Shown here piece after piece: positions 19,401-39,531 of a DNA stretch of 39,531 nt. Source of the stretch: a virus (lineage: Duplodnaviria; Caudoviricetes). Under the pieces are notes generated by a model that worked only from the letters and a program-made list of their open reading frames with translations, was not told the DNA's origin and did not search any database. Location: positions 1 to 39,531 of IMG/VR virus record IMGVR_UViG_3300037506_000146. One strand, given 5' to 3'. The first letter of the stretch is position 1. The number at the start of each line of letters is the position of its first letter. The position numbers were made by a program, and so were the translations under genes.

Positions 19401-19427
19401 ATTACCCATGAGGCCCCGTTGAGATGA
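16422..19427 (+). CDS. Internal virion protein with M23 endopeptidase and lytic transglycosylase domains
   Basis: M23 motifs HAGID, YSHL, STGRHLHF, IDP; lysozyme-like VMAFETGG and ATGLIQF; start set at ATG 16422 (MAESQ), after the upstream stop. Confidence 0.88.
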   Translation: MAESQLVRVIGIDSNIPNPMSLQSPTHQPIPDVTGQKFAEARQYQEQAYQAQLNSINAIADAKVKEAQSRTQSKGAETLAGIVGNLTGGLALYQKALKEKQETADKKYETQVKTQQEEGKVLAQTLIRDKLLELRSQVVSGASEDGVEKTRGDLELILNKQFKDLSPELRDELWKIAFSGLDEVASKQAERQFQQLKETKEAWRDYELAKLNASTASFSVRLSTAKTVEEQKEAWNGFWEAFNTGTEKLQLDAKDKAYIAAKLLTQAVEQYQGGEKNRQSLVESANAVKAFYDEIQPTVDKYNKGEIGEYEYRSTLRYVATKHGVPELAGNVPDIFSTTDKAVAYEKNQEALRKMAQDRSEVISFDDANKAEAYHVGALTYDILQNSPEARMLLLAAKEGKTPLTTLQRMAVQAAEDFNKDRKEWLALQQQYAQYSVQVAKVIDQVTPGRLGDPQTIDPITGILKQVETQKDPETGLPILRPETSPEVRDAIIRLSETVLPAMRELRDRWLAIGLNIDNPKDNSFIKQMEAQTSGQRKAAEEYDPKKKGGSVLPNFNQGVAEGYPETPPIAPFAKINGISIPFHGGTPVTVTGGYGWRTHPTKGDKRFHAGIDYSATGDNVSALTIQGGTVILADNWGGYGGTVMVRTHDGRVEQYSHLRKFNVRSGQTIPPGYAVGLVGGDPADPRAGDSTGRHLHFQVWVDDGSFTNPQSGTIDPIRYLSSIRHAKHSPRGLGSPPTQTAPGRMGSGSTSGYPSNPQASGGMLKVNPRLIVRQRIIFNNSNPMSNGYASIHKQDYQGRNNPQANYGYGVIARDRQFARKIASVADSVGIPAQWLVDVMAFETGGTFSPSIRNAEGATGLIQFYPDEVGGITKTMNGRTINLLEIAGWSRTRQMDLVREYLAPYKGRLNTVEDVLAVIFGGEGLLNQSPQSRSNTSDSSISFSGYVKRLGEHVGRRYQTSYDRGQLSMRRVHSSPVGGCLLCQNMIRKYGEIITHEAPLR

Positions 19428-25200: not shown

Positions 25201-25566
25201 GATTATGGTGGACTAAACCCGCAATATCTGGATATCGCCTACAACATGGGATACCGCGAGGAGACCATCCGGGCCGCACTGCTCGATGGCAAAAAAACGA
25301 TCCAAAAGGCATCCCAGAACTTACCGACCATCGCAGATCCTAAGCGACGAGCGGAACAAGAGCTACGTATTGGAGCCATGAAAGCGGCATGGGCAGCTCT
25401 GGAAATAGACTATAGACGATTTTATAAGTGGCGTACGGAGCGAGGATTAAAACCACGCGCCGCTATACGTGAGCTACAGAGACAAAACATGATCATCCAT
25501 AACCTACCCGCCACACCTGATGAACAAAAGGTAATAGACGATGCCAACCGACTTAACAACAAATAA
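22237..25566 (+). CDS. Large internal virion protein (gp16 position)
   Basis: 1109 aa, helical; lies between the ejection proteins and the tail fibre. Confidence 0.72.
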   Translation: MPVTPKSLGCELPLPDPQLQRGKGTFNDAELDDVSRRMELLASRLKNARNAVQQGLEAASERALKLILTRYENAARLSQVNKLNPGLGTRGIQHQMARDFAVAYDIFGLGNKYTPSGEVRQFFNRARRLWEGGVHEALAKIEFIQINEKAWKQVLPLKRKYGLSDSEFRTITSLAEEIGWQKYINEYGDLASNGTTLLKKRQDNFLDRLRRLGFDDDDVVLLLDNAHKVADVYQEAIAIGAKAGINIETLQDIGYFPKIFSAEALRRFDWEMLDDGVKFSDGITKNLRDVFTSAKNSFKFLAEDEVLLDYLFRSKNPEIYKVLSDETGKLIENIRDVLDDSKVLGRALFQHLGEETVDRLVRSNILSKTPMTSEEIYNHLKTLYPRLPFKLDELISTDWDRTAKLFEEQLSSMAGKSGMEWMMVRNAIENGWGVSAAERAANPGLYRSFVPLSDSIPAKLHKQFGLSDLEAFKSTYVHPIVSDLNNALLDISTSPTKMSVFGQVLGDLMTTFRTMVTATTGFVTRQLWSQFVQVGAAGGNILDYLPTLVKTITAHKVGYNVFDDTRKIYRGFGGELVTERALYHQAVEQGLVNAYTAFNGQTVGNAFHSWNPLNVKRGARYLWNTVNEYKSWGRAIQEVSEMAKYAINDVAGQPFRFFNNVLDNASKFSVLKSLTATDAFNRPGLFVEKARAAIHDATRLITTGQTRHMNLEEAVEHIGQYFYWYDDLGRVDKFIGRYIIPFWAYRSRNLPMQVRHVLRNPHAFATFNKLYAAQNAPMYLEGEDFPEGGIPNHVLNDKNWYWKMPNGDYFALPMTPIDPMADAWNSLEIGANEVLRSFGIWTEATQPRTPDDQIKKNIPWDTSTSDGYLDGILKDTYQIHQAIASTIKGEDIRTGRSLKEDDTGRQYSSFLGTYIHPLGRYWLETLVPILGTLNRANPGGIFGLRPEYDTKTGELKRPGKLSIFGAERSDRDRVDDEVSKTWWIKMLRDYGGLNPQYLDIAYNMGYREETIRAALLDGKKTIQKASQNLPTIADPKRRAEQELRIGAMKAAWAALEIDYRRFYKWRTERGLKPRAAIRELQRQNMIIHNLPATPDEQKVIDDANRLNNK

Positions 25567-26692
25567 CGTACCGTTTACAACTCCAATCGGTACAACCCCA
25601 TTTACGGTGGATGTTACAAATGCAAATCTAATGGCTGATCTGACCGTAAAAGACTTTACGGTCATCGTCAACGGAGCTGTCAACCCCAACTCAAACTGGA
25701 CAAAGACGAGTCGGACGGTATTAACGTATGTCGGTACGGCCTTTGGCAGTGCTCTAGCCGCAGAAGTGAGGCGAAACACACCCTCGATGCGAGTGCAAGA
25801 GGTGACGTTCGCCAATAAGTTCAATTCGGCGCTGTGGGAAGAAGAGTTAAACCGAGTCTCTAGACGGGCCTATGAATACGCCCTCAATGGGGTAGGGCCG
25901 TCGTTTGCGGGGGTGTCTTATGTGCCCATTAACGCCGCGTATAACTATGCTGTGTGGAGTGCTGACACGGTACAGACTGCAACTCGTAGTGCAGTTGCCA
26001 ACATTATCAACACATTATCGCCATTAGAGTCACCGGTATTTACGGGCAATCCAACAGCACCCACACCCACGGCCGGTGACAACGATACGTCGTTAGCAAC
26101 CACCGCATTTGTGAATACCTATGGTACAAATCTTTTAGCCAACTCACCGGCGCTCGGAGGTAATCCGGTATCGACCACCCCCGTAGACTCCGACAGTGAT
26201 ACGTCCATTGCTACCACGGCGTTTGTCAAAAACCAACACTCCAGGTTCTTAGCGCGACGAACAACTTCAAACCAGTCGTTGACAAAAGCGTCTGTAAATA
26301 CCGCCATCTTTAACACCGAAACCTACGACACCGATAGTCAGTACGCATCAACAACGGGTATATTCACCTGTACGAAACCTGGTATTTGGTTGTTTTCCTA
26401 CGGGACTAGTGTTGTTTTTGATAGCACAGGGGGTACAACGTACACGTTTCATGACACGTACCTTAACTACAACAACAGTTCAATCATTTATCAAGGCGGT
26501 AGAACCCAGCAAAACTGGACTAGTACATCATTATCAGGGGCTACTTTTGCATCCACAGGTTCTATCATCTTGCAAATGTCTAACTCAGATACGATCCAGG
26601 TATCGGTTTATCCTGACCTAAACGGTTCATCCTCGACCGCTGCACTAGGACAAACCAGTCATTTTTCAGGGATTCGTTTATTGGCCCTCTAA
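25541..26692 (+). CDS. Tail fibre with a C1q/TNF-like C-terminal domain
   Basis: gp17 position; two SPxxxGNP...DxDTSxATTAFV fibre repeats; C1q-like FNTETYD...TGIFTCTKPGIWLFS. Confidence 0.85.
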   Translation: MPTDLTTNNVPFTTPIGTTPFTVDVTNANLMADLTVKDFTVIVNGAVNPNSNWTKTSRTVLTYVGTAFGSALAAEVRRNTPSMRVQEVTFANKFNSALWEEELNRVSRRAYEYALNGVGPSFAGVSYVPINAAYNYAVWSADTVQTATRSAVANIINTLSPLESPVFTGNPTAPTPTAGDNDTSLATTAFVNTYGTNLLANSPALGGNPVSTTPVDSDSDTSIATTAFVKNQHSRFLARRTTSNQSLTKASVNTAIFNTETYDTDSQYASTTGIFTCTKPGIWLFSYGTSVVFDSTGGTTYTFHDTYLNYNNSSIIYQGGRTQQNWTSTSLSGATFASTGSIILQMSNSDTIQVSVYPDLNGSSSTAALGQTSHFSGIRLLAL

Positions 26693-26878
26693 ATCAAACT
26701 CTGCTGGCTTTTTAGATTTTACACGGTGTCTGCCCATCAAATAGAGTTCAATGGCCGCGTCAAGCAGCAAAGCGCTTAGTGACACACATTCTTGTTTCGC
26801 GACAATTTCCAACGCGGTTTTGGTTGCTTTCGGCATCGTGACCTTTATGAGATCCGTCGTGTCTTTGTTTATTGGCAT
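26678..26878 (-). CDS. Ribbon-helix-helix (CopG/Arc-like) DNA-binding protein
   Basis: IKVTMP strand followed by helices KTALEIVAKQE and SLSALLLDAAIELYL. Confidence 0.75.
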   Translation of the reverse strand: MPINKDTTDLIKVTMPKATKTALEIVAKQECVSLSALLLDAAIELYLMGRHRVKSKKPAEFDLEGQ

Positions 26879-26938
26879 GATTTTGTAAAGTAAGGAGTTG
26901 TGCTAGTAGGCCAACATGACTATTGTAGCTAAAATCAA

Positions 26939-27292
26939 TTACTGTATCAATTGGATGATTTCAGCTTGCAGCAGAAAGTTATTTAGCCGATTCTCTTTTA
27001 GTCGTTCTAACGATCGACCTTTTGACTTACAAAACTCAGCATAAATAGACAACAGATCGCCAAGGTAGCCGTTGGCGATCTCTTCATCATATTCGTAGCA
27101 GTACAGGGGTAGATACTGGTCTTCAATTGAGTGAAAGCCCTTTTCAACAGGTATACGATAAACAATTTGATACCCATCGACGAAAGAAGCTTCTTCCATG
27201 AACGTAATCTGTATTTGCCTTTCCAGGTCTAGCCTGAACATTTTGATTTCCTCGTCATCAGCGTCGTAGGGGTCTTTTTTGTAAGAGGTCAT
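26939..27292 (-). CDS. Hypothetical acidic protein
   Basis: 117 aa; GGAG 8 nt upstream of the ATG. Confidence 0.7.
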   Translation of the reverse strand: MTSYKKDPYDADDEEIKMFRLDLERQIQITFMEEASFVDGYQIVYRIPVEKGFHSIEDQYLPLYCYEYDEEIANGYLGDLLSIYAEFCKSKGRSLERLKENRLNNFLLQAEIIQLIQ

Positions 27293-27355
27293 GGTTTTTA
27301 CTCCATATTCTTAATGGAGTAGTTGATGATCTCAGCTACTCCGTGAGCAAACGAC

Positions 27356-27931
27356 TTAAAACGGTGTGTCGTTGTGGTTTTCCGGTTGGCTATTGAGTCG
27401 ATGTCTAAGCTGCTCTCTAAAGTGACTCTTGCGCGTTTGAGGTCTTTTTTCTGGTTCTTGGTTTGATGCTTCTACTTTCTGAATAACCTTGCCTGAATAT
27501 CCAACTGCACCATCGTCCATTTCTTCTTCATACAGTGACACTCGAAGCTTTAAATCTGTCCAGTCAGAGGCTACGTCGAAATAACCATAGAGTACGTTTG
27601 AACTTCTACCATTCTGATTTTCATACAACGATAAAAAACCGACTTGATGGTCAAAGTCGATTTTGTACTGGTTTTTGATCTTTTTTTGGGCATACATCCC
27701 ACCCCATAACACTGCCTTGGTCTGATGGTCGTGTTTGGGTTCGTACAGAAACCCCGCCAAATAGGTTTCTGGACTATCGAGTCCAACCTCAAACCTGAAC
27801 AGATATTTAGAGTCCTCTTTAGTGGATGGGTAGAGGTGCATATAACCAACCTCTTTGAACTCAGAACCAGTATCTTTTTCTGGCTCTTTAGGTCGTTCAC
27901 TTCTTTTCGCTAGTCCTGTTCTAAACGGCAT
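27356..27931 (-). CDS. Probable single-stranded DNA-binding protein
   Basis: Aromatic beta-strands, disordered tail ending DTPF (SSB-like tip); directly downstream of ERF. Confidence 0.6.
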   Translation of the reverse strand: MPFRTGLAKRSERPKEPEKDTGSEFKEVGYMHLYPSTKEDSKYLFRFEVGLDSPETYLAGFLYEPKHDHQTKAVLWGGMYAQKKIKNQYKIDFDHQVGFLSLYENQNGRSSNVLYGYFDVASDWTDLKLRVSLYEEEMDDGAVGYSGKVIQKVEASNQEPEKRPQTRKSHFREQLRHRLNSQPENHNDTPF

Positions 27932-27933
27932 CG

Positions 27934-28380
27934 TTAACTCCTATATTTTTGGTATCTAAATTGTTTCCGTTCTGGTGCTGGATTTTCAGGTCTTCTCGTC
28001 GCCGTAATACCATCATCATCCTCAGCCGCTAACGCCAGCAATCCAAGCAGCGTATATCGCCTGTAGTAGGTCGATGCTCCACACACTTGATGAGCCGTTA
28101 GGTCTGGGTCTATTGCAAGCATAGACTCACAGTACGCCCCGGTTTTAATATCCACAATCCGGGATACTTGAACCAGCATACTGCCTCGTATTTCCTGAGG
28201 CTGTTCTAGATACAACCCATATTTTTTTAAGGTCGGCTCTATCAGACTCAACACAGCATTAAGCGTCACGTACTGATTGTGGTATTCCGTGTTTATTGCA
28301 TCTTTTGTGACGGTTGGTAACTCCGCTTTCACATGCATAAGCTTTTGGTAAAGCCCAATCTGATCTTCGTTCATTTTCAT
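27934..28380 (-). CDS. erf: ERF-family ssDNA annealing protein
   Basis: ERF motif GASTYYRRYTLLGLLALAAEDDDG; N-terminal KDAIN...YVTL. Confidence 0.9.
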   Translation of the reverse strand: MKMNEDQIGLYQKLMHVKAELPTVTKDAINTEYHNQYVTLNAVLSLIEPTLKKYGLYLEQPQEIRGSMLVQVSRIVDIKTGAYCESMLAIDPDLTAHQVCGASTYYRRYTLLGLLALAAEDDDGITATRRPENPAPERKQFRYQKYRS

Positions 28381-28389
28381 AGTTGGCCC

Positions 28390-30435
28390 TTATTTACATT
28401 CTTTCCAGGTTCGCCCTACTTTGGCTTCTGCGGTGATCGGAAGTCCAGGAAGTAAACTGTTTTCAGGCGTCATGCAAAATACCTGATTGAGTATGGTCTT
28501 GGCCTCTTCGTCATGGTCTTTTAAGACATCCACCACGTATTCGTCGTGGACGTTTAGAATGGGGATCCCTCCGATCTTGAGCAGTTTAATCGTCGCCTTG
28601 CTTGCCAAAATCTTAAAGATGTCAGCCGCCGTCCCTTGGATCAGGGCGTTAAATACTTGCCGTTGGGCTTCGGCTCGACGTTTACAGAGCTCTTCGACCG
28701 AGGCGTTACCGAGTACCCGGGTCGATCGATTGGACTGTCTCTCTTTCCAGCTAAATACCGGGAGACAAATGTCTGGGTAGACCAGACGCCGACCGTAGAG
28801 GGTGTGTACGACACCGCCATTTTTTGACGCCTTATCCCAAACGCGCCGTTTCAGCTCTTGGGTGGCTGGGGTTGCCGCTCTCCATTCATCCATCAACGCT
28901 TTCGCTTTTTCAACCGTACATCCAATGATGCTTGCAGCACGGGCGTACCCTGACCCGTACAAGTCGCCAAAGTTAAACGTTTTGGCAACCGATCTCGATA
29001 CGTTGGCCTCATCGGCTTTTAGCTGATGCGGATCACCTCCCGCGTGGAAACAGTCCCAAAGCACTTTGGCATCCGGATAGTCGTCTAGCTCATCTTTGAA
29101 CATGTTGACCAGGTACCAGGATAAAACTCTTAACTCAATCTGATCCAAGTCGATCCCAACTAACCGGTGATCGGGCGATCGCGCAATCACAGTGTCTCGG
29201 ATCGCATCACCAAACTCCCCACGGGCTGGAAGATTCTGAAAGTTCGGGTTGCGTGACGAAATACGTCCAGTAACGGTACCGTATTGGATCCAAGACCCTT
29301 TCAAAACTCCACCACTATCAATAAATTTGTTGATATACGTGGACATCAACTTCTCATAGACCGAGTACTCACTCAACAACTGAGCTAGTGGGTATTCTAA
29401 TGATTTTAGCACCTCTTTGTCTAGTGCCTCGTTGCCGGAGGCGGTGCGCTTCGGCGATTCAAACCCATACAGCTTTTTGAGCGCATAGAGTTTGTGAGCT
29501 AAAGAGTTCGGAGAAAAAGCCGTCCAGGCTCTATAGGTGTAGCGTTCACGATTGTCTTTTTTATCTATTTCTTTTCCTAGGTATTTAAACATACCCGGAA
29601 TGGCGTCCGACTCGTTGTCTGTTACATCATCTCCATTACGGGGATGCAGTGTCTTAGACCACTTACCGAGTGGTACGAGACCGACTAACTCAGCCATTTT
29701 CGACGTAATGAATTGATGCTTTTCCGACAGCGTTGTTTTTAGTTCTAACAACTTTGACAGATCAAAGTGAATACCCGCCGATTGCAATTGTCGGATGACG
29801 TGCAAGTAGGGTAGTTCGATCTCAGAATACAAGTTCCAGGCTTTGGCATCCTCTTGCAGTCTTGGCAAGATGTATTCGGCTAGCAGACACTGAGAGCGAG
29901 CGTCTCTTTCGCCGTACGTTTCAAGCGCGGCGGAATACTCAGAAAAATCGGGTCTAGACAACTTGCGCTCTGCAAGACCCAGACGTTGACCCCATGCCGC
30001 TAACGAGTATTTGCTATGCTTTTTAACGGGTTTGAGTGTTTTAGAGCTGATCGTTGTGACGAGTTCCTCCTCAACAGTTGGGCACAACAACCAGCCAGCG
30101 ATTAGTGTGTCATGGAATATGACGGGTTCGGGAAACCCAAATAAGGACAATACAGATATGTCGTACTCTGCACCGTGAAAACAAGGAACTAGGGTTTTTG
30201 TGGTGTTCCCTACGGTCACTTTGCGATTGGTTAAGATGTCGATCAATCCTTTTGTATGCTCGTTTGCAGGGATGGGATCACCCAGCGCCATCTTTAAGGG
30301 TACGACCCCGGACTTAAGCTCACCCTCATCTGTGCGATAGCAATACGACACCAGGTGTAAACGGGTAAGCGAATCCAGTAATCCGTCCGTTTCACAGTCC
30401 AAAATGATTACAAGTGAATGGTCTAGCTCAATCAT
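28390..30435 (-). CDS. Family A DNA polymerase with 3'-5' exonuclease
   Basis: ExoI DCETDG, TVTGRISSRNPNFQNLP, motif A DLDQIELR, motif B AKTFNFGDLYG, motif C VHDE. Confidence 0.97.
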   Translation of the reverse strand: MIELDHSLVIILDCETDGLLDSLTRLHLVSYCYRTDEGELKSGVVPLKMALGDPIPANEHTKGLIDILTNRKVTVGNTTKTLVPCFHGAEYDISVLSLFGFPEPVIFHDTLIAGWLLCPTVEEELVTTISSKTLKPVKKHSKYSLAAWGQRLGLAERKLSRPDFSEYSAALETYGERDARSQCLLAEYILPRLQEDAKAWNLYSEIELPYLHVIRQLQSAGIHFDLSKLLELKTTLSEKHQFITSKMAELVGLVPLGKWSKTLHPRNGDDVTDNESDAIPGMFKYLGKEIDKKDNRERYTYRAWTAFSPNSLAHKLYALKKLYGFESPKRTASGNEALDKEVLKSLEYPLAQLLSEYSVYEKLMSTYINKFIDSGGVLKGSWIQYGTVTGRISSRNPNFQNLPARGEFGDAIRDTVIARSPDHRLVGIDLDQIELRVLSWYLVNMFKDELDDYPDAKVLWDCFHAGGDPHQLKADEANVSRSVAKTFNFGDLYGSGYARAASIIGCTVEKAKALMDEWRAATPATQELKRRVWDKASKNGGVVHTLYGRRLVYPDICLPVFSWKERQSNRSTRVLGNASVEELCKRRAEAQRQVFNALIQGTAADIFKILASKATIKLLKIGGIPILNVHDEYVVDVLKDHDEEAKTILNQVFCMTPENSLLPGLPITAEAKVGRTWKECK

Positions 30436-30450
30436 CCTTTTGACTCCTCA

Positions 30451-30481
30451 AATAAAAAGGGGGGCAGTTATACCCCCCCCT
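30451..30481 (-). terminator. Intrinsic terminator upstream of the polymerase gene
   Basis: On the minus strand: G-run, TATAACTG, CCCCCC, then TTTTTATTT. Confidence 0.7.
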
Positions 30482-30508
30482 AGTAGTGCGATGGAATCTA
30501 CTTACATT

Positions 30509-30958
30509 CTACGCATCTACTTTTGTTTTAATAGCCGCTGTATCAGATTTGATGATAGCCGTATCAGATTTGAGGACGGTCGTATCAGATTTGAGAACAG
30601 TCGCATCTGATTTAATGTCTGTAGCGTCAGTCTTAATGGTTGTGATGTCAGTCTTAATGGTTGTGATGTCAGTCTTAATGGTTGTGATGTCAACCAACAT
30701 ATCGTTGCAAACGGATCTAGTAGCTACTATGCTTGCCGTTAATTGTGTTAACACGTTAGACATTGCTGCTAACGTGTCTTGTATCTGGTCTATTTGTTTA
30801 CCAACTCCCATAACGGTACTTTCCTCAACATCATTTTCGATTTTGTTTAACAACCGTCTTAAAACGGTTAACTCTCTGTTCAAAATTTGCATCTGAGAGT
30901 TTGTCTGTTGCAATTGCTGAACCAATTGCTCAATCGTTACTCTTGTTCGTTCATCCAT
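30509..30958 (-). CDS. Heptad-repeat coiled-coil protein
   Basis: DITTIKT x3 plus related heptads; ATG 30958 with GGAG 5 nt upstream (track start 30979). Confidence 0.75.
   Translation of the reverse strand: MDERTRVTIEQLVQQLQQTNSQMQILNRELTVLRRLLNKIENDVEESTVMGVGKQIDQIQDTLAAMSNVLTQLTASIVATRSVCNDMLVDITTIKTDITTIKTDITTIKTDATDIKSDATVLKSDTTVLKSDTAIIKSDTAAIKTKVDA
30626..30688. repeat. 21-bp exact tandem repeat x3 (coding heptads)
   Basis: GTCAGTCTTAATGGTTGTGAT at 30626, 30647 and 30668. Confidence 0.95.
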
Positions 30959-31335
30959 TCGTACTCCGTGGTTAACCACTCAGACGGAATCTCGTAACCG
31001 GTCGCGGCGATCACACCCATCTTCCGCAACTTCTCGCTCATCATTAGATGTTTTGTCCTGGGTATCCGATAGTCCTTTTCTAACAAGATTCTCAATCTTT
31101 TTTTTAGGTCTGGATTTTGTTGGAGAGCGTACCCCAACATCTTTAACCAGGTTTTGATGTGTGGGTGGTACCCCTTCAGTTCCAGATATAAACCGTTCGG
31201 TAACACGAAGTCTGGTGTGTAGCTGGTCTTCATCCAGACATCGTACATCCTCGACTTTTCCGGCAATTTGTTGAGATTCGGATAGCGTGCTAATATCGCT
31301 TGCTCGTATCTCCCCCTCGGTTTTTCTACTGCCAT
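30937..31335 (-). CDS. T7 endonuclease I-like Holliday junction resolvase
   Basis: PD-(D/E)xK motif YTPDFVLPNGLYLELKG; GAGG upstream of the ATG. Confidence 0.88.
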   Translation of the reverse strand: MAVEKPRGRYEQAILARYPNLNKLPEKSRMYDVWMKTSYTPDFVLPNGLYLELKGYHPHIKTWLKMLGYALQQNPDLKKRLRILLEKDYRIPRTKHLMMSEKLRKMGVIAATGYEIPSEWLTTEYEWMNEQE

Positions 31336-32974
31336 CGCCTACCACCTCGTTGTATTTTTGCTTGTACCAATCGAATACTAACGATATCGTTCCAGTGTCC
31401 CGTTGTGTTCGGTTTTTTGATATCTTTAGTATTGCTTTTTCTATTTCACTACTTTTATCTTCCTCCCTACTAAGTTCTATTATGTTGGAGGCTAGCTGGT
31501 TCGTATTCTGGTTACCCCAGCCTTTCCAACTCCCTTCTTCGTCCTTTGTGCCATGCGAAATGACGACGATGTGGATGCCCAAATCCCTGGATAATTCGTA
31601 GAGTTTCTTAAACGTCATCCCAATCGTATGGAACATGTCGTTACGGCTACCGCTTGACGCCGCGATCGTCAAATGATCTAGCACCACAAACTTGACATCT
31701 TTGGATCGGGCGGCATACTCAACCACCTCTGCAATCTGATCCGTAGGCATACTGCCTGTGATGCTCGTCACCTCTAGGTGCTGCATGGCCGAGTCAAAAT
31801 ACTGATCTAACGTCTCGGCTGAAATTAACGGTACCTTAGAGGAGGAAATCAACAAGATCTCCTGCATCATTTCAATAATCTTGATCACGCCGATATCGTT
31901 ACCGTCTTCTAACGGCATGTAAAGACAGTGAATACCATTCAGCAATTGTTTAACCACCAACCACCGAGCAAAGGTCGATTTGCCTTGATGGATCCCGGCC
32001 AAAATAAGAGAACACTCTCCCATGCGCCAACCGCCTAAGGCGTCATCTAACGATAAAATACCGGTCGGTAACCCGGTTCGGTATTCCGAGCTAAAGTACC
32101 GGCGATGGACATTTTTTCGCAGCTCTTCTTTATCGGAAATTGAGGCAGGTCTTCTACACGTGGCTGATTGGATGGCTAATCTGAACTCCGCTTCACGCCG
32201 ATGCAGTAAAAAATCACACGCATCTTTTGTGACCGTCTCTGATACCTGAAGTCTTGGTAAGTCAACATGATAACCAACACCCGGTTTAAGGAGATTCATA
32301 CAAGCGGCTGCCGCCTTCTGACCTTCAAGGTCGTTATCAAAGCACAAGTACACTCGTTTAAATCGTTCAAGATCAAAGAGACACTCTTTGACATAGCTCT
32401 TCGCACTCTGTGCTCCGTGCGGGATTGACCAAACAGTGTAGTCACTGTGATTGCGATCACTGAGCATCGTCATGGTCGCTAAGGCATCCTCTTCTCCTTC
32501 TGTGATGATCAGGTTTTGATCACTGGGTTTGTATTGCACGCCAAAAAAAGTGACGTGCTTTGCGTTCCCAATCCACGAGGGGGGTCGCTGATCTTTTTTG
32601 GCGTGTTTGATCTTAGCTGCAATACAACCGTACCCTGTTTTGTGGTACGGAAACGTCAAGTTACCGTGTGCATCGGTTCCAACGCCGTAGCGCTCACAAA
32701 TCCGTTGCGGGATCAAGCGACTTGCAATCCCTTGTATTTCAAGGTCTGGAATTACGAAAGACCCCAATACGAGAGGTGGTTTGTCTTCCGTGTTGGGGTC
32801 GTAGTCAATCCCTTTATCTTTAGCAAGGTTTACGTCGTAGTACCCCTCATTGCAGGTGTAACAAAACCATGTTTCACCTTTTAATCGATCATTGTAAAAT
32901 ACTGCCCTGTTATCCCGGCTCCCGCATTTTGGGCAAGGTTCGTGACGCAGGAACCGTTTTGTGCTGTCTGACAT
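30980..32974 (-). CDS. T7 gp4-like primase-helicase
   Basis: Zn finger CPKC...CYTC, TOPRIM ITEGEED and FDND, helicase Walker A AGIHQGKST, VVLDH, VISH, KNR. Confidence 0.93.
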   Translation of the reverse strand: MSDSTKRFLRHEPCPKCGSRDNRAVFYNDRLKGETWFCYTCNEGYYDVNLAKDKGIDYDPNTEDKPPLVLGSFVIPDLEIQGIASRLIPQRICERYGVGTDAHGNLTFPYHKTGYGCIAAKIKHAKKDQRPPSWIGNAKHVTFFGVQYKPSDQNLIITEGEEDALATMTMLSDRNHSDYTVWSIPHGAQSAKSYVKECLFDLERFKRVYLCFDNDLEGQKAAAACMNLLKPGVGYHVDLPRLQVSETVTKDACDFLLHRREAEFRLAIQSATCRRPASISDKEELRKNVHRRYFSSEYRTGLPTGILSLDDALGGWRMGECSLILAGIHQGKSTFARWLVVKQLLNGIHCLYMPLEDGNDIGVIKIIEMMQEILLISSSKVPLISAETLDQYFDSAMQHLEVTSITGSMPTDQIAEVVEYAARSKDVKFVVLDHLTIAASSGSRNDMFHTIGMTFKKLYELSRDLGIHIVVISHGTKDEEGSWKGWGNQNTNQLASNIIELSREEDKSSEIEKAILKISKNRTQRDTGTISLVFDWYKQKYNEVVGDGSRKTEGEIRASDISTLSESQQIAGKVEDVRCLDEDQLHTRLRVTERFISGTEGVPPTHQNLVKDVGVRSPTKSRPKKKIENLVRKGLSDTQDKTSNDEREVAEDGCDRRDRLRDSV

Positions 32975-33417
32975 TGCGCAATCAATTGTCTGTAGAGTTC
33001 TAAAGGTGTGGTTGGTTTTTTGTGATCCGTAAACCCAAGTAAGTATTTAATAAAAGTTGTACAAATAAACCCGGACGGTTCGATCCTTAATCCAGCCAGG
33101 ATCAAATCCGGTATTGATAGCTTTAAGCGCATGGTGAGTGCAGTGACAAGGCGGCCGGTCACCAGGTCAAATAACTGATCGGTTACGGGATGGATCACCA
33201 CTCGCTCCTTGACATTTTTTAATTCATCCGTCGCTGGGAGTTGTAATCCCCAACGGCTGTAGTCAATGTTGTAGGCTTTATCATCGCTGGTTACGGTGAG
33301 GGACACATGCACATAGGTCATGTCGTGTCCCAAAAGCGACCCAACTAAATACACGAGTACAGAGTCTGCGTTTCGCCAATCAACTGCATGAAAATTGACA
33401 ATAATGCTGGTGCTCAT
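32881..33417 (-). CDS. Permuted papain-like (NlpC/P60, YiiX/YaeF-type) hydrolase
   Basis: His-before-Cys order: YVHVSL ... FICTTFI ... TPLELY. Confidence 0.6.
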   Translation of the reverse strand: MSTSIIVNFHAVDWRNADSVLVYLVGSLLGHDMTYVHVSLTVTSDDKAYNIDYSRWGLQLPATDELKNVKERVVIHPVTDQLFDLVTGRLVTALTMRLKLSIPDLILAGLRIEPSGFICTTFIKYLLGFTDHKKPTTPLELYRQLIAQCQTAQNGSCVTNLAQNAGAGITGQYFTMID

Positions 33418-34090
33418 GGCTGCTCTCAGTAAACGTTTCGGCTGTCGATATTCCCAAACAATACAGATAGGTGTACACCCGCCACGTCATATTTTTAATT
33501 TTTGTGAGGGAGTATTTATCTGGATTTACGGTTACCCAGTGGTTAACAATTTGCTCTGCATCCAGTGGCTCATCTGGATTTTCAGCTTGATAACACCGGA
33601 TCATCTTTTTCGTCTCGATCAAGTATCGAGTCAGTGATTGATTGACCTGTGAGGTCAGTGACTTTTCACTGGTATGGCCAATCCCACACTTCTCAAGCTC
33701 TCTAACCATCTCAAACCAGGCGTATCGCCTACGCCATTCGGTAATAAGCAGTTGGATGCTTTTGTGCTGATTTTCTTTTATGTATCGTAAAAACATGTGC
33801 ATCCGATCAATATGTGCCTCGTAATGCATCTGTGTTCTATCCGAATCGTTGTCGTTGGGTATTTCGTACCACTCGCGCGATCGACCAATGACACGTCTAC
33901 CGTATGACTGTTTACGACCATAGTGTGTCCGACTTCTTGAGTACACCAGGTCGGACACCATAACCCAAAGCACTTGTTGCTCAAAGGCATTCAGGTTCCC
34001 AAGCCTATATTTGTCAAGTAGGGCACAGCGGTCAGCATCTGTGCCCATATATTCTCTGAGTGCATCATTGCCTAACAAAAGCCTAGTCAT
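33380..34090 (-). CDS. Hypothetical protein
   Basis: 236-aa ORF in operon orientation; no motif recognised. Confidence 0.7.
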   Translation of the reverse strand: MTRLLLGNDALREYMGTDADRCALLDKYRLGNLNAFEQQVLWVMVSDLVYSRSRTHYGRKQSYGRRVIGRSREWYEIPNDNDSDRTQMHYEAHIDRMHMFLRYIKENQHKSIQLLITEWRRRYAWFEMVRELEKCGIGHTSEKSLTSQVNQSLTRYLIETKKMIRCYQAENPDEPLDAEQIVNHWVTVNPDKYSLTKIKNMTWRVYTYLYCLGISTAETFTESSHEHQHYCQFSCS

Positions 34091-34149
34091 ACCACGAAAA
34101 ACATAAGGTCTTAATGGTGATTCTAACTAGACCACTATGCACTAGGACA

Positions 34150-34635
34150 TTACGATTCATGTTTGTGTGTTGAATCAGTGTTAACACTGATAATTGTTTC
34201 TTCTGACACAGATTTTTCAGATTGATAGTCTATTGTTTGGATTAACACTTTGGTAGTCCAATCGGGCATCCAGGCATCCAAGTAAGACCTAAAGTCGTAC
34301 TTTGTTACAAACGGACTTTTATACCAATCACCCACAAACACTAACCCGCTAATCGTCTCTGGACGGCGATTGGCGAACGTGTGAACAGAGCGTATGAATT
34401 GTACAGCGTATGCAGGCACCGACCGGTTCGCCGCCCAACGTAACGCCGTTTGTTCGTTTTCTGCGACAACCAACCACGGTTTACCATCCCAGTTCTTCAA
34501 TACTTTCCACCCACCAATACTTGATTGGTAAGCATTTTTCTGTCGTCGGATATCAGCACAATCGTAGGTCAAAAAATGGTTAGCCTTGATTTTCAACATT
34601 TGACACTGCCTTAATAATTGATTTTTGGGCTTCAC
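34150..34635 (-). CDS. Hypothetical protein
   Basis: 161-aa Trp-rich ORF overlapping the upstream gene; start uncertain. Confidence 0.6.
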   Translation of the reverse strand: MKPKNQLLRQCQMLKIKANHFLTYDCADIRRQKNAYQSSIGGWKVLKNWDGKPWLVVAENEQTALRWAANRSVPAYAVQFIRSVHTFANRRPETISGLVFVGDWYKSPFVTKYDFRSYLDAWMPDWTTKVLIQTIDYQSEKSVSEETIISVNTDSTHKHES

Positions 34636-35077
34636 TGATGTGATACAAATACTCTTCCTGGATTTGTAACCCTAGCTTTTCGGCGTGCTGGGACACAAGA
34701 TGTAATACGACCGTATCAATACCCTCACGGATTTGATTCGCTTCCTGCGCGACTTGGTGTTCTAGTGGCGCTAGGTCGTACTGGCGCAGCACGATGTCCG
34801 TGCTTTGGTCACGTTCAGCCGCATCAACGCGCGTGATGGCGTACGTCGTCGTTGGGTACACCTCATCGTCTGAGTCCACCACGATGCTATCGGGCAGCGT
34901 TTTTTTCTTGATGGACGCAGACAATAAAGACGCTTCAAAGGCAGTGTATGTAATACGAGTACCGTTAACCGTTCCAAACGTCGTACCGTATTTGCCTTCT
35001 AGCGCCCTCTTATGCCGTCTGAGGGTTTCAGCAGACACACTTAAAGAGTCTGCCAATTCTTTGTGGGATATCTTCAT
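34580..35077 (-). CDS. MerR/RacA-like HTH protein with C-terminal coiled coil
   Basis: SHKELADSLSVSAETLRRHKRAL helix-turn-helix, wing GTRITYT..E..LL, linker, then helical C-terminus. Confidence 0.75.
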   Translation of the reverse strand: MKISHKELADSLSVSAETLRRHKRALEGKYGTTFGTVNGTRITYTAFEASLLSASIKKKTLPDSIVVDSDDEVYPTTTYAITRVDAAERDQSTDIVLRQYDLAPLEHQVAQEANQIREGIDTVVLHLVSQHAEKLGLQIQEEYLYHISEAQKSIIKAVSNVENQG

Positions 35078-35205
35078 TTTTTTTTCGGTTTGTGGGGTAT
35101 GTGTGGGGTATCTGTGGGATATGTGGGGGTATTACCCACATTTTGTGGGTATATATCCCACATTTTGTGGGTATATATCCCACATTTTGTGGGATAGCAC
35201 CCACA
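35062..35205. repeat. Phased TGTGGG/CCCACA palindrome array
   Basis: CCCACA-TTT-TGTGGG at 35135, 35157 and 35179 (22-bp period); extra TGTGGG at 35062, 35091, 35102, 35113, 35122 and CCCACA at 35200. Confidence 0.95.
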
Positions 35206-35231
35206 GGTCATCTCTGAAATACAACGAGAGG

Positions 35232-35648
35232 CTACTGGCTCGGTGGGATAAGCCAGGGATACAGCTCGTGAACGTTATGCGACAGCTCACGCACAACTGT
35301 ATTAATAAGCAACACAATACAGACGTACCAAAACAGTAAACAAGTTCGTAAGAACCAAGCCATTAAAAAGTTACCTAATTTACGCCCGAATATAACTCTA
35401 AATAACCCCTTTATTGGGGTTATTATGTTGCGGTGAACAACACGATTTAGAGGTACCAAATCCCGGATTGGTAGCTCTTTTTTGAAATTTGAATACGTAA
35501 GATGTTCGACATCATGAGCCTTCAATAGAGGACAAATAATGTCCCTACCAAAAAGCAAATTTAAGGACAATTTTCGCCTAAGACTTTGCTTCCACCTTGG
35601 CGAATTAATGTATTCGTAATAGCCCGAAGAAAGCTTTTTATGACTCAT
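35232..35648 (-). CDS. Degenerate HNH-like protein with a C-terminal transmembrane helix
   Basis: YYEYINSPRWK...DVEHLTY.NF..E...DLVPL...H pattern; hydrophobic FLMAWFLRTCLLFWYVCIVLLI tail. Confidence 0.65.
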   Translation of the reverse strand: MSHKKLSSGYYEYINSPRWKQSLRRKLSLNLLFGRDIICPLLKAHDVEHLTYSNFKKELPIRDLVPLNRVVHRNIITPIKGLFRVIFGRKLGNFLMAWFLRTCLLFWYVCIVLLINTVVRELSHNVHELYPWLIPPSQ

Positions 35649-35670
35649 GTTTGTAACATAATGGAGTAGT

Positions 35671-35770
35671 GGGACATTGGGATATGGGACATTGGGATAT
35701 GGGACATTGGGATATGGGACATGTCCCGGGATATGTCCCTGGCATGTTTATAGCCGTGTCCCAATGTCCC
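35671..35770. repeat. GGGAYA repeat array (clt-like) at the 3' end of the ATPase gene
   Basis: GGGACATTGGGATAT x3 (35671-35715), palindrome GGGACATGTCCC (35716-35727), GGGATATGTCCC (35728-35739), inverted copy at 35756-35770. Confidence 0.95.
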
Positions 35771-37149
35771 TAAAAGTCCAAAACAAGGTACGTGTTTGGT
35801 GAGGTCTCCTTAACCATGCCGTGCGTTTTGGCAATATAAATACACTGTTGTACCATCTGCTTATTCCGAACGTCATACTTTTTTGCCCAATAAGAACTGC
35901 GACACATTTCATACGTAATCGTGTCACCATCTTTACTTTGCAGATAAGCGATAAACCCTAATAAGATTGATGCTTCTGCATCATTACGATCTCGCAAATT
36001 TGCAATTAACTTTTGGGCCTTACTCTCATAGTTTTCAGTTGGTTTTTTGGCGTCAGAAATAGGCAGGTCACGGTTAAAACCAGAATAATTTTGCAACAAA
36101 GGCATGGCATGCCATTTGTTCGTCTTGCTGTCAAAATACGCCCTGGTTGCAGGTGATTGATTCATTAAATCAAGCAACACATCTTTATTCGGTACGGGAA
36201 CAAATCGGGTGTTGAGAAAGCTATTTGTGGCACTCATGTTACGTGCGGACACCAGTGCGATTGTGCGATTAAACGTAGACCGAACACCGCCACTGATCCC
36301 CAGATCTTGGATGTGTGGGATCGGGGTCATCAGATACAAATACTCACGTCTACCGTTACCACTCGTAATGATGGACACCAAAAACTGCTTAAACCGAGCA
36401 AACAGCTCGGGTGACCCGGCTAACGCCATCGTGGCTAACACAGCCTCATCAAGTACCAACAGCTTGGGTGTGGGTATCTCCTGAAAATGCTGGATACCCT
36501 CCCACAACCAATCAGCGGCGACCCCTTTAGAAAGCCGGTCAATCCGACAGCGACGGACATCGTCAAACCCTTCAGTCCAGTACCCGTTCTCATTTGTTTT
36601 GTGAGCCGGGTCAATGGCCATAATGTACAACTGCGGGTATTTGGCTTTAAGCCGCCGACACACATTGCTGACCAAGATGCCTTTACCACTACCCGAAATA
36701 CCGACAATGATGGTGGATTCGGGCGTTTGAGCCATATCTTCGTCGATCCGCAGCACTGATCGCTTTGCCAGTGGTTTTGTTGGAGGTAGCACTAAGTCGG
36801 CTGGTTTGGGTTCAGGGTCTACAGTCTCAACATCAATCGCGTGAAGCTGAGTGTTTATGCTTGGACGGTAGGCTGGACACGAGTCTTCGGGTACCCAAGG
36901 GTCAGCTTCACTGTCGCCATTCGGGGGTAACAACGTTTGGTTAGGTTGTGGTTCATCATCATCGTGCTCTCTGGCATAGATGAGATCGTTTACGCCGGCG
37001 AAAACGATTAAAAAGGCGGCTGGTACGCCGCCTATCGTATAGAAGATAAAAGCACAGAGCATCATGGCTGTACCGATAACAGCGCGATCGCGCGTGATAT
37101 AGGCAAATAGCAATGGTGCTTCGCCTAAATCATTTTCGAGCTTGATCAT
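35770..37149 (-). CDS. Membrane-anchored FtsK/HerA-superfamily (TraB/SpoIIIE-like) P-loop ATPase
   Basis: N-terminal hydrophobic hairpin, Pro/acidic linker, Walker A GISGSGKG (36679-36702), AIDP, Walker B LLVLDE (36445-36462), separate ~80-aa helical C-terminal domain ending in a beta-hairpin. Confidence 0.8.
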   Translation of the reverse strand: MIKLENDLGEAPLLFAYITRDRAVIGTAMMLCAFIFYTIGGVPAAFLIVFAGVNDLIYAREHDDDEPQPNQTLLPPNGDSEADPWVPEDSCPAYRPSINTQLHAIDVETVDPEPKPADLVLPPTKPLAKRSVLRIDEDMAQTPESTIIVGISGSGKGILVSNVCRRLKAKYPQLYIMAIDPAHKTNENGYWTEGFDDVRRCRIDRLSKGVAADWLWEGIQHFQEIPTPKLLVLDEAVLATMALAGSPELFARFKQFLVSIITSGNGRREYLYLMTPIPHIQDLGISGGVRSTFNRTIALVSARNMSATNSFLNTRFVPVPNKDVLLDLMNQSPATRAYFDSKTNKWHAMPLLQNYSGFNRDLPISDAKKPTENYESKAQKLIANLRDRNDAEASILLGFIAYLQSKDGDTITYEMCRSSYWAKKYDVRNKQMVQQCIYIAKTHGMVKETSPNTYLVLDF

Positions 37150-37778
37150 GATTTATACACACCCTGATATCGCAGAGCTTGTAATATCGTCAACGCAATC
37201 CAAACGGAGGCCTCAACACCAAACAAGGCGATGGCAAACAGCACCATATTGTTAAAGTCGATGAGTGCAAAATCCCACCGACCCGCGTCCTCGTAAAACG
37301 CGGTAATACCGCCTTGGTAGGGCGGGTATTGTAAAAAGCAGACGACAAGCTCAAGGACGTAGCTCAACGCACGGAGCATTGAGAGCTGATTCCGTAACCA
37401 CACCGGTGGTTCCCAGTCCGTAAAATGAGCCAGTATTGGCGTGATCTCAATCGATTGGGTGACCGCCCATAACGTAATACCCATCAAGGCGGCAATGTTG
37501 GGCTGTATGAGAGCTCTTGCACCTTCGGCTAAATCGTGTCCGAAAAACGGTACCCACTCTAGGAGAAAATAAGGGACGACACTGATGTGACTGGCGGCTG
37601 ACTTTGCAACGGCGATCCAAGGCTGGACGTTGAGAAGGATCATAAACCCTAATCCAACCAACACCAAAAAAGAGAAAACTCTAGCCGCATTTGTTGGAGT
37701 CAACCAAACAAACGTGTTTTTAGGTTGTTTACTTGATCTCGCTGATACGTTTGGTTGTGTAGATCTGCGTCTATCCAT
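37146..37778 (-). CDS. Polytopic membrane protein (~4 TM)
   Basis: Basic N-terminus and several long hydrophobic segments; ATGA-coupled to the ATPase gene. Confidence 0.85.
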   Translation of the reverse strand: MDRRRSTQPNVSARSSKQPKNTFVWLTPTNAARVFSFLVLVGLGFMILLNVQPWIAVAKSAASHISVVPYFLLEWVPFFGHDLAEGARALIQPNIAALMGITLWAVTQSIEITPILAHFTDWEPPVWLRNQLSMLRALSYVLELVVCFLQYPPYQGGITAFYEDAGRWDFALIDFNNMVLFAIALFGVEASVWIALTILQALRYQGVYKS

Positions 37779-38170
37779 TACAAGCCTCTGTCTCTTATGA
37801 TTCGTCTTATTTGTTCAACCGGTGCGGATCGCACCGAGGTGATTAACCCACCTTTCACAATGGCAGTATACCCGCTATCCTTCGAGCACAAGGTGGTACC
37901 ATCAGGTAACAACCGTGCGCTTACTCGGTTTGTAGGATCGTAGAATGCCCTAGCCCCTTCGACTAGAGGGAACCTCTCGTCGATCAATAGACACGTTTTA
38001 GCGCGTCTAAGCACCTCACGCTCGTTCTCTTTGTCGCGCTGCTGACGCTCGTAAAACATGGACTGCTCATTTTTGGCATACTCGTTTTCCGCTATGGTCT
38101 GTCCGATACGTTTACCATTAAGCAATACCACTACAGCCGCAGAGATCCAGAAAAAAGAGGATACTTTCAC
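37778..38170 (-). CDS. N-terminally membrane-anchored protein with a two-Cys soluble domain
   Basis: GTG 38170 with GGAGG 8 nt upstream; SSFFWISAAVVVLL anchor, coiled segment, C...C domain; TAATG-coupled to the next gene. Confidence 0.8.
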   Translation of the reverse strand: MKVSSFFWISAAVVVLLNGKRIGQTIAENEYAKNEQSMFYERQQRDKENEREVLRRAKTCLLIDERFPLVEGARAFYDPTNRVSARLLPDGTTLCSKDSGYTAIVKGGLITSVRSAPVEQIRRIIRDRGL

Positions 38171-38183
38171 ATAACTAGCCTCC

Positions 38184-38216
38184 AAAAAAAAATAGAGGAA
38201 GTTGTTTATCTTCCTC
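38184..38216 (-). terminator. Intrinsic terminator just upstream of the membrane/ATPase module RBS
   Basis: Minus strand GAGGAAG-ATAAACAA-CTTCCTC-TA-T9. Confidence 0.7.
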
Positions 38217-38259
38217 CTGTTATTGACCTTGTTCAGCAGTAAGGCTAGGCAAAGTCACT

Positions 38260-38448
38260 CTAGCTATCTTTATCATGGTTTTCAATCAAAATCAGTGACA
38301 AACGATATTGCGTATGTTCGTGCAGGATAAGAGACAGTAACGCCCCAACGGATTCAATGTCAGGTTTCGACATAAATTGTTTCAGCGCTTCAACCCAGTC
38401 TTTGCTGAGGATAAGAACAGTCGATTGGTCTTCGTGTTGTTGACTCAT
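38260..38448 (-). CDS. Small protein, possible RHH fold
   Basis: TVLILSKDWVEALKQF...SVGALLSLIL strand-helix-helix pattern; ATGA-coupled. Confidence 0.55.
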   Translation of the reverse strand: MSQQHEDQSTVLILSKDWVEALKQFMSKPDIESVGALLSLILHEHTQYRLSLILIENHDKDS

Positions 38449-38720
38449 TTCTTTTGCGCTCGTTTTGTGATTTGTTCGTGCTTTGGTGTGGTACGTCTAC
38501 CAGGCTTACGCTTGCCATCCCGTAACCGCTGCAAATTACTGGGACTGTTGTTTGTGCGATCACCGTCCTTATGGTGGACAACAGAGCCGTCGTTGCGCTT
38601 GGCTCCAACCTTGTGTCGATACTCAACCCGCTTACCATGTTTGTACCGGCCATTGGCTTTGCCGATCCTTTTCATGTTTGCATTTTTTACTCTAGTCCCT
38701 CTTGTGGTCGTATTAGGCAT
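38445..38720 (-). CDS. Small basic HNH-motif protein
   Basis: VVHHKDGDRTNNSPSNL motif typical of phage HNH endonucleases. Confidence 0.75.
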   Translation of the reverse strand: MPNTTTRGTRVKNANMKRIGKANGRYKHGKRVEYRHKVGAKRNDGSVVHHKDGDRTNNSPSNLQRLRDGKRKPGRRTTPKHEQITKRAQKK

Positions 38721-38872
38721 TGATCCAGTACCTTAATGCGATTAGTAAGCACATAATCAGAAATAGCAGCGGTGACCGCTGAATCTATATCTAGCTTACT
38801 TTCTTGATCAAGGTACTTAATCAACTCAGAATAAACAGTTTCTGGCAACTCAACGACTAACGATATGTTCAT
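38687..38872 (-). CDS. Cyanobacterial DUF2811-like small (RHH-like) protein
   Basis: ISLVVELPETVYSELIKYLD...DSAVTAAISDYVLTN resembles the DUF2811 pattern as I recall it; AGAGG upstream of ATG 38872. Confidence 0.65.
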   Translation of the reverse strand: MNISLVVELPETVYSELIKYLDQESKLDIDSAVTAAISDYVLTNRIKVLDQCLIRPQEGLE

Positions 38873-38890
38873 AAAAAACCTCTGAGTAGT

Positions 38891-38921
38891 AAGAAAATAG
38901 GGGTTCAATTTGAACCCCTAT
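38891..38921 (-). terminator. Perfect 12-bp inverted repeat; terminator or operator
   Basis: ATAGGGGTTCAA-T-TTGAACCCCTAT (38897-38921), followed by TTTCTT on the minus strand. Confidence 0.65.
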
Positions 38922-38928
38922 GCGCAGC

Positions 38929-39099
38929 TTAGGGAGAAACTTTAGACAATCGTTCGATAGCAGAAGATTTAAGACGCATTAACGTTCCGTAAAATGGATT
39001 AAGCTTACACAGCGGTGGTAACTTAATACCAAACAACTTAATACGCGATATTGGACAGTCATTTGGCAACCTGACTAGTAATTGATCGATAGCTTTCAT
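38929..39099 (-). CDS. Hypothetical early protein
   Basis: ATG 39099 with GGAGG 6 nt upstream (track start 39165). Confidence 0.6.
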   Translation of the reverse strand: MKAIDQLLVRLPNDCPISRIKLFGIKLPPLCKLNPFYGTLMRLKSSAIERLSKVSP

Positions 39100-39161
39100 A
39101 ATCAACCTCCGATGTGGATTTAATAAACAAATGATCCACGTCGGTAAGATTGATTTATTTA

Positions 39162-39386
39162 TCAACGTGGATAAAATCCGAAATCGTTGTTTGCACGCAT
39201 AGTCAATACGTCAGGACACGGTGCAAACAGCTCATAATCATCCATTACGTCACTATCCAATCGTCTGAACAGAGCGGGTGATTCTGGGTAAAATTTACCA
39301 TCAAAGCGTTGGGCATAAATCCCCCACTGGTCTTCACCAGTATTCGAGATGTAAGCATATTTGAGTAGTTCAATCAGTGGTCTCAT
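39162..39386 (-). CDS. Hypothetical early protein
   Basis: 74-aa ORF in operon orientation. Confidence 0.6.
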   Translation of the reverse strand: MRPLIELLKYAYISNTGEDQWGIYAQRFDGKFYPESPALFRRLDSDVMDDYELFAPCPDVLTMRANNDFGFYPR

Positions 39387-39531
39387 GAGTCTGATTCAGC
39401 CTCTTTTGGATCGCGTCTAGGATCGGCTGATCCAGCTTAATCGCTGGATACTTATTACTGTCGAGTGTGAGTCCTCTGAAATTCATATCGGACACGAGCA
39501 TCTGCGCCAAGAAAGCCAAATCCTCAGCACG
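39370..39531 (-). CDS. Partial hypothetical protein (5' end outside the window)
   Basis: Open frame ...RAEDLAFLAQMLVSDMNFRGLTLDSNKYPAIKLDQPILDAIQKRLNQTHETTD* runs off the window edge. Confidence 0.5.
   Translation of the reverse strand, partial: RAEDLAFLAQMLVSDMNFRGLTLDSNKYPAIKLDQPILDAIQKRLNQTHETTD

Follow-up and report, generated by a model that had tools for sequence, protein, structure and literature searches.

The viral record IMGVR_UViG_3300037506_000146 (39,531 nt, analysed over its full length and called the window below) carries three membrane-associated genes on its minus strand, the last of which encodes a predicted FtsK/HerA-type ATPase, and a dense array of short repeats begins at the stop codon of that ATPase. 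An earlier note on this DNA had likened the module to the TraB-clt-Spd system of Streptomyces plasmids and had suggested that it may pump phage DNA across septa into neighbouring cells. In our analysis, the module is very probably a membrane-anchored FtsK-type system that binds DNA site-specifically; its central features are as follows.

37778-38170, minus strand: gene 1, membrane-anchored two-Cys protein, 130 amino acids (aa) from GTG 38170 (135 aa from TTG 38185)
37146-37778, minus strand: gene 2, integral membrane protein, 210 aa, 3-4 hydrophobic segments
35770-37149, minus strand: gene 3, ATPase, 459 aa, with a predicted transmembrane (TM) hairpin, linker, FtsK/HerA-type core and winged helix
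36073-36762, minus strand: predicted ATPase motor core (aa 130-359), with Walker A GISGSGKG, IDPA, Walker B VLDE, GNG at the arginine-finger slot and Pro at the sensor Gln
35773-36030, minus strand: C-terminal winged-helix domain of the ATPase (aa 374-459), from structure prediction and structural matches
35670-35770, no strand assigned: repeat array 1, GGGAYAT units in two opposed blocks, beginning at the ATPase stop; candidate winged-helix binding site

The translational coupling that had been read from the sequence was confirmed: genes 1 and 2 overlap at TAATG, and genes 2 and 3 at ATGA. For gene 1, the GTG at 38170, which has GGAGG located 8 nt upstream, is a more likely start than the TTG at 38185, and the protein has a hydrophobic stretch at its N-terminus and two Cys. 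The second protein, previously described as having about four TM segments, showed two hydrophobic segments at a hydropathy threshold of 1.6 and three at 1.5, giving three and possibly four. Searches of PHROGs, NCBIfam and PDB sequences returned nothing useful for genes 1-3. Profiles built from five relatives (L011, L012, L022, L059 and L097, with the window sequences left out) matched gene 2 at E 4e-25, these relatives being sited directly upstream of their ATPase, and matched gene 1 at E 1e-5 from the equivalent position. Gene 2 also had a match on a Scytonema plasmid. The order of small anchored gene, TM gene and ATPase, whose conservation had been anticipated, recurs on cyanobacterial plasmids and prophages; all three genes are present on plasmid alpha of Nostoc PCC 7120.

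The ATPase belongs to a family of 386 representatives at 50% identity, and its nearest Atlas clusters are mostly cyanobacterial and without a name; it matched AAA_22 of Pfam weakly and had no match in PHROG, NCBIfam or PF01580 (FtsK/SpoIIIE). An AlphaFold2 model of the 459-aa protein (135 sequences; mean predicted local distance difference test score, pLDDT, of 85) agrees with the architecture proposed earlier, with predicted helices at 22-40 and 42-61, a low-confidence linker at 70-101, a P-loop core at 130-359, a C-terminal domain at 374-459 and no alpha domain. The modelled core matched VirB4 (Z 14.5), EccC (13.5), Rho (13.4), TcpA (13.2), HerA (12.9) and FtsK (12.6), with FlaH and B204 also within Z 12.6-14.5; we place it, as a prediction, near the FtsK/HerA superfamily and leave its substrate unnamed. 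When folded alone, the C-terminal 91 residues reached a pLDDT of 81 in the best model, and the top structural matches (Z 7-8.7) were winged helices, led by Fur (8.7) and DpnI (8.3); Foldseek gave no hit for this domain with E below 0.001. The expected motor fold and winged helix are thus both predicted, the latter as a general winged helix and not specifically a gamma domain, since FtsK gamma was not among the matches listed.

Aligned to the canonical FtsK of the Cylindrospermopsis phage CrV, the ATPase family profile matched at E 6e-6 through IDPK and both Walker motifs; in this register IDPK and TQ are retained, with GKG in place of GKT and GDS in place of GRG. Across the 135 family sequences, the Walker A Lys (K156) is conserved in 100% and the Walker B Glu (E235) in 99%. 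PMC11703096 names an arginine finger before strand 4 and a sensor Gln as marks of the FtsK/HerA superfamily. The window ATPase has the RecA-like P-loop core with Walker A and Walker B and lacks the arginine finger, and an Arg stands two places past the finger slot in 35% of the family, the window ATPase included. Of the traits of TraB, an N-terminal membrane anchor and a C-terminal winged helix are both indicated by hydropathy and the models.

The phage copy of the ATPase is under purifying selection. Among the 40 population variants listed of 49, 22 were synonymous against about 24% expected (P 5e-5); in the motor part 9 of 13 were synonymous, and most replacements fall in the linker. Full-length or partial ATPase variants exist, and one DNA run (X1) covers 30 of 30 bins of 32000-39531. 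We rejected a decayed gene on the basis of the intact variants and the synonymous excess. We likewise rejected a packaging motor, as the phage has its own terminase, found as the earlier note had claimed, alongside a portal. The further argument that an ATPase beside a terminase must serve to spread DNA carries little weight, as 293 phage records contain FtsK-like genes, most of them from phages that infect Bacillus or Mycobacterium.

In the window, the heptamer TGGGATA is common to array 1 and to a second array described below; TGGGAYA occurs 29 times, compared with 11 expected and 0 of 100 shuffles reaching 29, and 14 of the 29 copies lie within 35064-35763. Among the 95 ATPase loci with enough sequence past the stop, 11 had a single 7-mer present at least 7 times no more than 400 nt from the stop, compared with 2 of 305 other genes. 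The units are element-specific and 6-8 bp long, start right after the ATPase stop in many relatives, and are found in 0-4 copies elsewhere in their own locus. Across motor clades, the unit tracks the C-terminal domain and not the motor. L005 and L036 share a C-terminal domain (68%) and the unit CGCCACA with motors in different clades, while L060, with a motor almost identical to those of L039, L043 and L062, has its C-terminal domain (44%) and GGAACA in common with L059; the unit of L023, L055 and L066 is CACGGCA. For a three-helix type of C-terminal domain, the repeats (CGAAAC, GGTTCA) lie within the coding linker. This is the pattern that a swappable recognition cassette would give. Host-wide tandem heptamers (STRR) were rejected as the source of the arrays, since units vary from one element to another and seldom occur in the rest of a locus.

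The distribution of the module is strongly biased to filamentous cyanobacteria, in line with the restriction that had been anticipated. By tblastn, the window ATPase matched 22 plasmid records out of 72,556, every one of them belonging to Nostocales or Leptolyngbya (filamentous in 22/22), and the copy of PCC 7120 found 62 plasmid records, 62/62 from filamentous genera, about half through the N-terminal domain only; no Streptomyces plasmid was among the matches of either query. By comparison, a control Rep gene was found on 203 plasmid records, at least 44 of them from unicellular Acaryochloris, Synechococcus or Synechocystis. In one sample of 401 cyanobacterial genomes, with only four candidates scored per genome, the ATPase was detected in 48, the Rep domain DUF3854 in 191 and PF17310 in 209; we take PF17310 to be FraD, which fits its location beside fraC in G001 (the centre of the search, positive by choice). 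The ATPase was present in 45 of 209 fraD-positive and 3 of 192 fraD-negative genomes, in 33 and 2, respectively, at E 4e-28 or better, and, among Rep-positive genomes of at least 4 Mb, in 33 of 105 and 2 of 52. FraD is described in PMC6630896 as a septal-junction component. Of the three fraD-negative exceptions, G275 has hetR, and G217 and G340, without a hetR or fraC match, may be incomplete genomes or truly unicellular.

The window encodes terminase, portal, capsid, tail, DNA polymerase A and primase/helicase genes (Pfam and PHROG searches), and the record has an estimated completeness of 93%. The best matches to its terminase, at 35-42% identity, come from LPP-2, Pf-WMP3, PP, TR020, A-4L, CHP58 and Pf-WMP4, every one a phage of filamentous cyanobacteria, as had been said of phages with this genome layout. 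The phage is a lytic-type podophage like Pf-WMP3 and A-4L, and a filamentous cyanobacterial host can be inferred because all these relatives infect such hosts. A DNA search of window positions 19600-39531 against the 401 genomes gave no CRISPR (clustered regularly interspaced short palindromic repeats) spacer or host match. The module region is present in two freshwater DNA runs, with no RNA run among the holders listed. Genome layout and core genes are alike in the Saffermanviridae (Pf-WMP3, A-4L, TR020, Pf-WMP4) and CHP58, but none of these five genomes has the ATPase or its partner genes.

Searches of 50,697 phage records with the window ATPase and one relative by tblastn gave no match either, and the module therefore appears to have been captured from the pool of plasmids and prophages. 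Among viral contigs, five had the ATPase. One is a complete phage that also encodes an integrase and a terminase, two are proviruses with partner families as in the window phage, and for the remaining two no terminase was matched; scans for close relatives in viral and metagenome contigs yielded no further loci. The motor tree groups the phage copy, with weak support, with Leptolyngbyaceae-like loci. No link from Nostoc-type partner genes to genes 1 and 2 of the window emerged from profile comparisons, and the partner genes of a large Nostoc clade and of a Phormidesmis-type clade had no detected link to those of the window phage; there are therefore at least three unrelated-looking partner sets. 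Two further, divergent motor types with the same N-terminal domain (L105:4983-7031 and L106:4959-6893) also have Nostoc-type partners ahead of them, so that motor, tail and partners are each exchanged. A motor-only paralogue (229 aa, with an altered Walker A; L031:3754-4443) follows the ATPase in four Nostoc-clade loci.

Three of the related phages, Pf-WMP3, A-4L and TR020, encode an early-arm protein of 366-432 aa with a ParB-like GGRHR/SGGHR motif (L108:1855-3153, L109:3513-4613 and L110:2629-3840); Pfam gave no clear hit. No open reading frame of the window matches this protein, and the module may therefore replace it in the window phage.

The surroundings of the three genes include four further features.

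38185-38217, minus strand: hairpin resembling a terminator, with 9 T after it, immediately upstream of the module; consensus match only
35232-35648, minus strand: HNH-like degenerate protein, 138 aa, with one C-terminal hydrophobic segment
35064-35196, no strand assigned: repeat array 2, 22-bp palindromic units TGTGGG-N7-CCCACA and 11-bp direct repeats, between the HNH-like and helix-turn-helix (HTH) genes
34580-35077, minus strand: 165-aa protein with an N-terminal HTH-like segment; module membership weakly supported

The hairpin may hold expression of the module low. Two arrays, an HNH-like gene and an HTH gene do lie downstream of the ATPase, but in a different order from that first described, with the arrays interleaved with the genes: array 1 (35670-35770), HNH-like gene, array 2 (about 35064-35196), HTH gene. 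The HNH-like assignment of the 138-aa protein, earlier called membrane-anchored, has moderate confidence; its hydrophobic segment is present, its nearest named Atlas clusters are HNH (0.90) and it keeps EHLTY and N..VH, whereas most of the Zn-type Cys are lost and Pfam gave no hit. HNH-like relatives lie near the module in L001, L023, L031 and L042, and L120 has a copy at 60% identity, around which no gene of the module lies within about 1.5 kb. The HTH gene product had weak Pfam HTH hits (E 0.03-0.05) and matched a family upstream of related ATPases at E 0.005-0.07. Array 2 is a candidate operator of the HTH gene or a second binding site, and its region at 35080-35216 is variable in the population, with loose ends and a skipped stretch in run X1. 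A search of Rfam gave no match.

We consider DNA transfer through mature septa the leading interpretation of the module in the window phage, with a probability of roughly 0.4. In such a mechanism, the TM hairpin would anchor the motor, together with the products of genes 1 and 2, at cross-walls, and the winged helix would read and load on array 1. The products of genes 1 and 2 would build or open a path through septal membranes and wall, as Spd proteins do, while the motor would oligomerise and hydrolyse ATP with a non-canonical stimulatory residue, for which R336 and R360 are conserved candidates. DNA would then be driven through the cross-wall, and replicated genomes could reach sister cells before or without lysis. 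Septal tubes, which are plugged and gated, sit in nanopores of about 20 nm and have a lumen of 7 nm (PMC6630896), in principle wide enough for duplex DNA. We regard as doubtful the full picture in which the naked phage genome spreads from cell to cell along the filament without virions, by means of a captured plasmid pump with a non-canonical active site and a swappable winged-helix/array cassette, and in which plasmid DNA would use the same system to cross the septa of multicellular cyanobacteria, a route so far unrecognised.

Several observations weigh against septal transfer. The core fold matches, themselves from a model, cannot tell DNA pumps from protein-secretion ATPases or Rho. In the 135 sequences, the arginine-finger slot holds Asp in 62% and Asn in 15% (Asn in the window ATPase) and Walker A ends in GKG, with no Ser or Thr, in 84%, and the window ATPase has Pro at the sensor Gln (Q276; Gln in 85% of the family) and is alone in having Ala at K182 (Lys in 99%); pumping may therefore be weak or absent. 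With regard to the arrays, the 11 positive loci include the window, one duplicate and one HIP1-like false positive. Counted as clusters, 7 of 22 are positive, or 5 of 20 without the window and the HIP1-like hit, and no array follows the short-tailed ATPases of the largest Nostoc clade (40 loci). Both window arrays fold as strong hairpins (z -4.5), 15 of 16 tabulated arrays mix both orientations, and adjacency of domain and array alone also yields co-inheritance. The genomes of the host test are not phylogenetically independent, and G217 has a strong ATPase hit (1e-108) with no match to fraD, hetR or fraC. Finally, the host of the phage is inferred solely from its relatives, the module is absent from all five related genomes examined, and the window module includes no wall hydrolase gene. 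On a Leptolyngbya plasmid (L004:8781-9977), an M23 peptidase gene lies three genes past the ATPase, a possible wall-opening partner.

There are four other explanations to weigh. The opposed repeat blocks are more centromere-like than a polar loading site, and with the FtsK-type fold of the motor they are consistent with segregation at division, in which the motor would use the array as a centromere-like site and clear or pull element DNA through the closing septum and into the daughter cell like FtsK or SpoIIIE, in the phage for the benefit of a carrier state. The complete phage with an integrase and the two proviruses among the other viral carriers would suit such a role, as would the GGRHR protein, with its ParB-like motif, that related phages encode in the arm where the window phage has none. 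Unicellular cyanobacteria divide too, however, and the module is nearly absent from them; several carrier plasmids already have ParA/ParB or ParM. We view segregation as unlikely.

The altered catalytic residues described above (no arginine at the finger slot, GKG, Pro at the sensor Gln, and K182A), along with the absence of an alpha domain from the model, could instead point to a tether or switch that does not pump, a degenerate motor anchoring DNA through the array for replication or packaging. This is rather unlikely, given the invariant Walker A Lys, the Walker B Glu conserved in 99% and the canonical FtsK that occupies the same operon slot in CrV, and it leaves the bias to filamentous hosts unexplained.

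Transfer between touching filaments, similar to the primary conjugation of double-stranded DNA by TraB, with the phage copy hitch-hiking or spreading through mats, would be supported by PMC4447253, in which TraB acts alone in Streptomyces transfer. TcpA ranks with the best fold matches, and 7 of the 22 plasmid hits were typed as non-mobilizable, but the other 15 are conjugative or mobilizable by other genes. Filaments are separated by two outer membranes and sheaths, and the module has no outer-membrane channel gene, making this route quite improbable. Least probable is superinfection exclusion, host takeover or lysis, with membrane proteins and a nuclease acting against incoming or host DNA and the arrays as mere RNA hairpins or operators, which would fit the early-arm position, the HNH-like genes after the ATPase in L009, L010, L012, L083 and the window, and the strong folding of both window arrays, but not a mainly plasmid-borne module whose array units track the C-terminal domain, lie inside the coding linker in one domain type and seldom occur in the rest of their loci.

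Current descriptions of septal junctions treat them as small-molecule channels. If transfer through mature septa is correct, DNA, too, would cross the septa of filamentous cyanobacteria. This would account for the filling of whole filaments of polyploid cells by plasmids, and phages would gain a way to spread without virions and past surface defences. The copy on plasmid alpha makes the question directly testable in a model strain, Nostoc PCC 7120, and a working pump would be a tool for segregating engineered DNA in filaments.

Elsewhere in the window, a 940-aa virion-arm protein (19424-22246) has a weak ADP-ribosyltransferase match (ART-PolyVal, aa 638-694, E 0.004), and a 156-aa protein with 7-residue repeats from 21-bp tandem units (30509-30979) is encoded between the endonuclease and DNA polymerase genes. 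Near the left end, a CCGAACCAT repeat array (171-263) and a 70-bp duplicated A+T-rich unit (418-562) may each mark a terminal or origin region. Host-like small genes at 38687-38908 and 38929-39165 carry DUF2811 and a Mo-nitrogenase C-terminal domain, and 38874-39170 is swapped for 31 other bases in a population variant.

Among known systems, TraB+clt+Spd of Streptomyces (pSVH1 and pIJ101; PMC4447253) is similar in having a membrane-anchored FtsK-type motor with a C-terminal DNA-reading domain (predicted here), element-specific short repeats, translationally coupled membrane genes and filamentous hosts. The Spd-like trait of membrane genes coupled within the operon of the motor is present, whereas Pfam, NCBIfam and PHROG gave no sequence homology to Tra or Spd, and none of the three gave a Spd family hit for genes 1 and 2, Spd sequences not having been compared directly by profile. 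The window module also differs in its altered catalytic motifs, its Gram-negative host with septal junctions and its lytic-type phage, and clt consists of direct 8-bp repeats in one orientation (PMC4447253), compared with mixed orientation here, a further point against septal transfer. SpdB2 homologues occur on some actinophages and were suggested to possibly spread phage DNA (PMC4447253).

FtsK and SpoIIIE (PDB 2ius, 6t8b) likewise have a TM domain, a flexible linker, a RecA-like core with IDPK and a winged helix; the module ATPase has no alpha domain, only two TM helices, GKG in Walker A and Asp or Asn at the finger slot, and its array is on its own element in place of the chromosomal KOPS. 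TcpA of pCW3 (6o1x), VirB4 (4ag5), EccC (4nh0) and HerA (4d2i) share the core fold at Z 12.9-14.5, tied within about 1.5, at 13-14% identity, and the window module includes no relaxase, type IV or type VII secretion system, or NurA partner. In CrV (MH636380; L119:732-5171), gp047-gp053 comprise HTH, helical and small membrane genes with the FtsK-type ATPase last; gp048 matches the family upstream of plasmid ATPases (E 6e-12), and the operon ATPase has a three-helix tail like those of the plasmid ATPases. The CrV enzyme, gp053, is canonical (GKT, GRG, TQRP), only annotated, and not detectably similar to the window ATPase by BLAST (E 0.2). The presence of a canonical FtsK on the same operon scaffold supports a pump in the ATPase slot.

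The open papers searched gave only general or Streptomyces papers and no published description of the module. By anatomy the module resembles TraB/clt/Spd, the predicted anchor and winged helix, the element-specific repeats and the coupled membrane genes of the original comparison being present, and it departs from that system in family profile, catalytic motifs (finger and Walker A) and repeat polarity. New here are the non-canonical motor clade, the controlled test of host bias, the swapping of domains and arrays, and a copy under selection in a lytic-type podophage.

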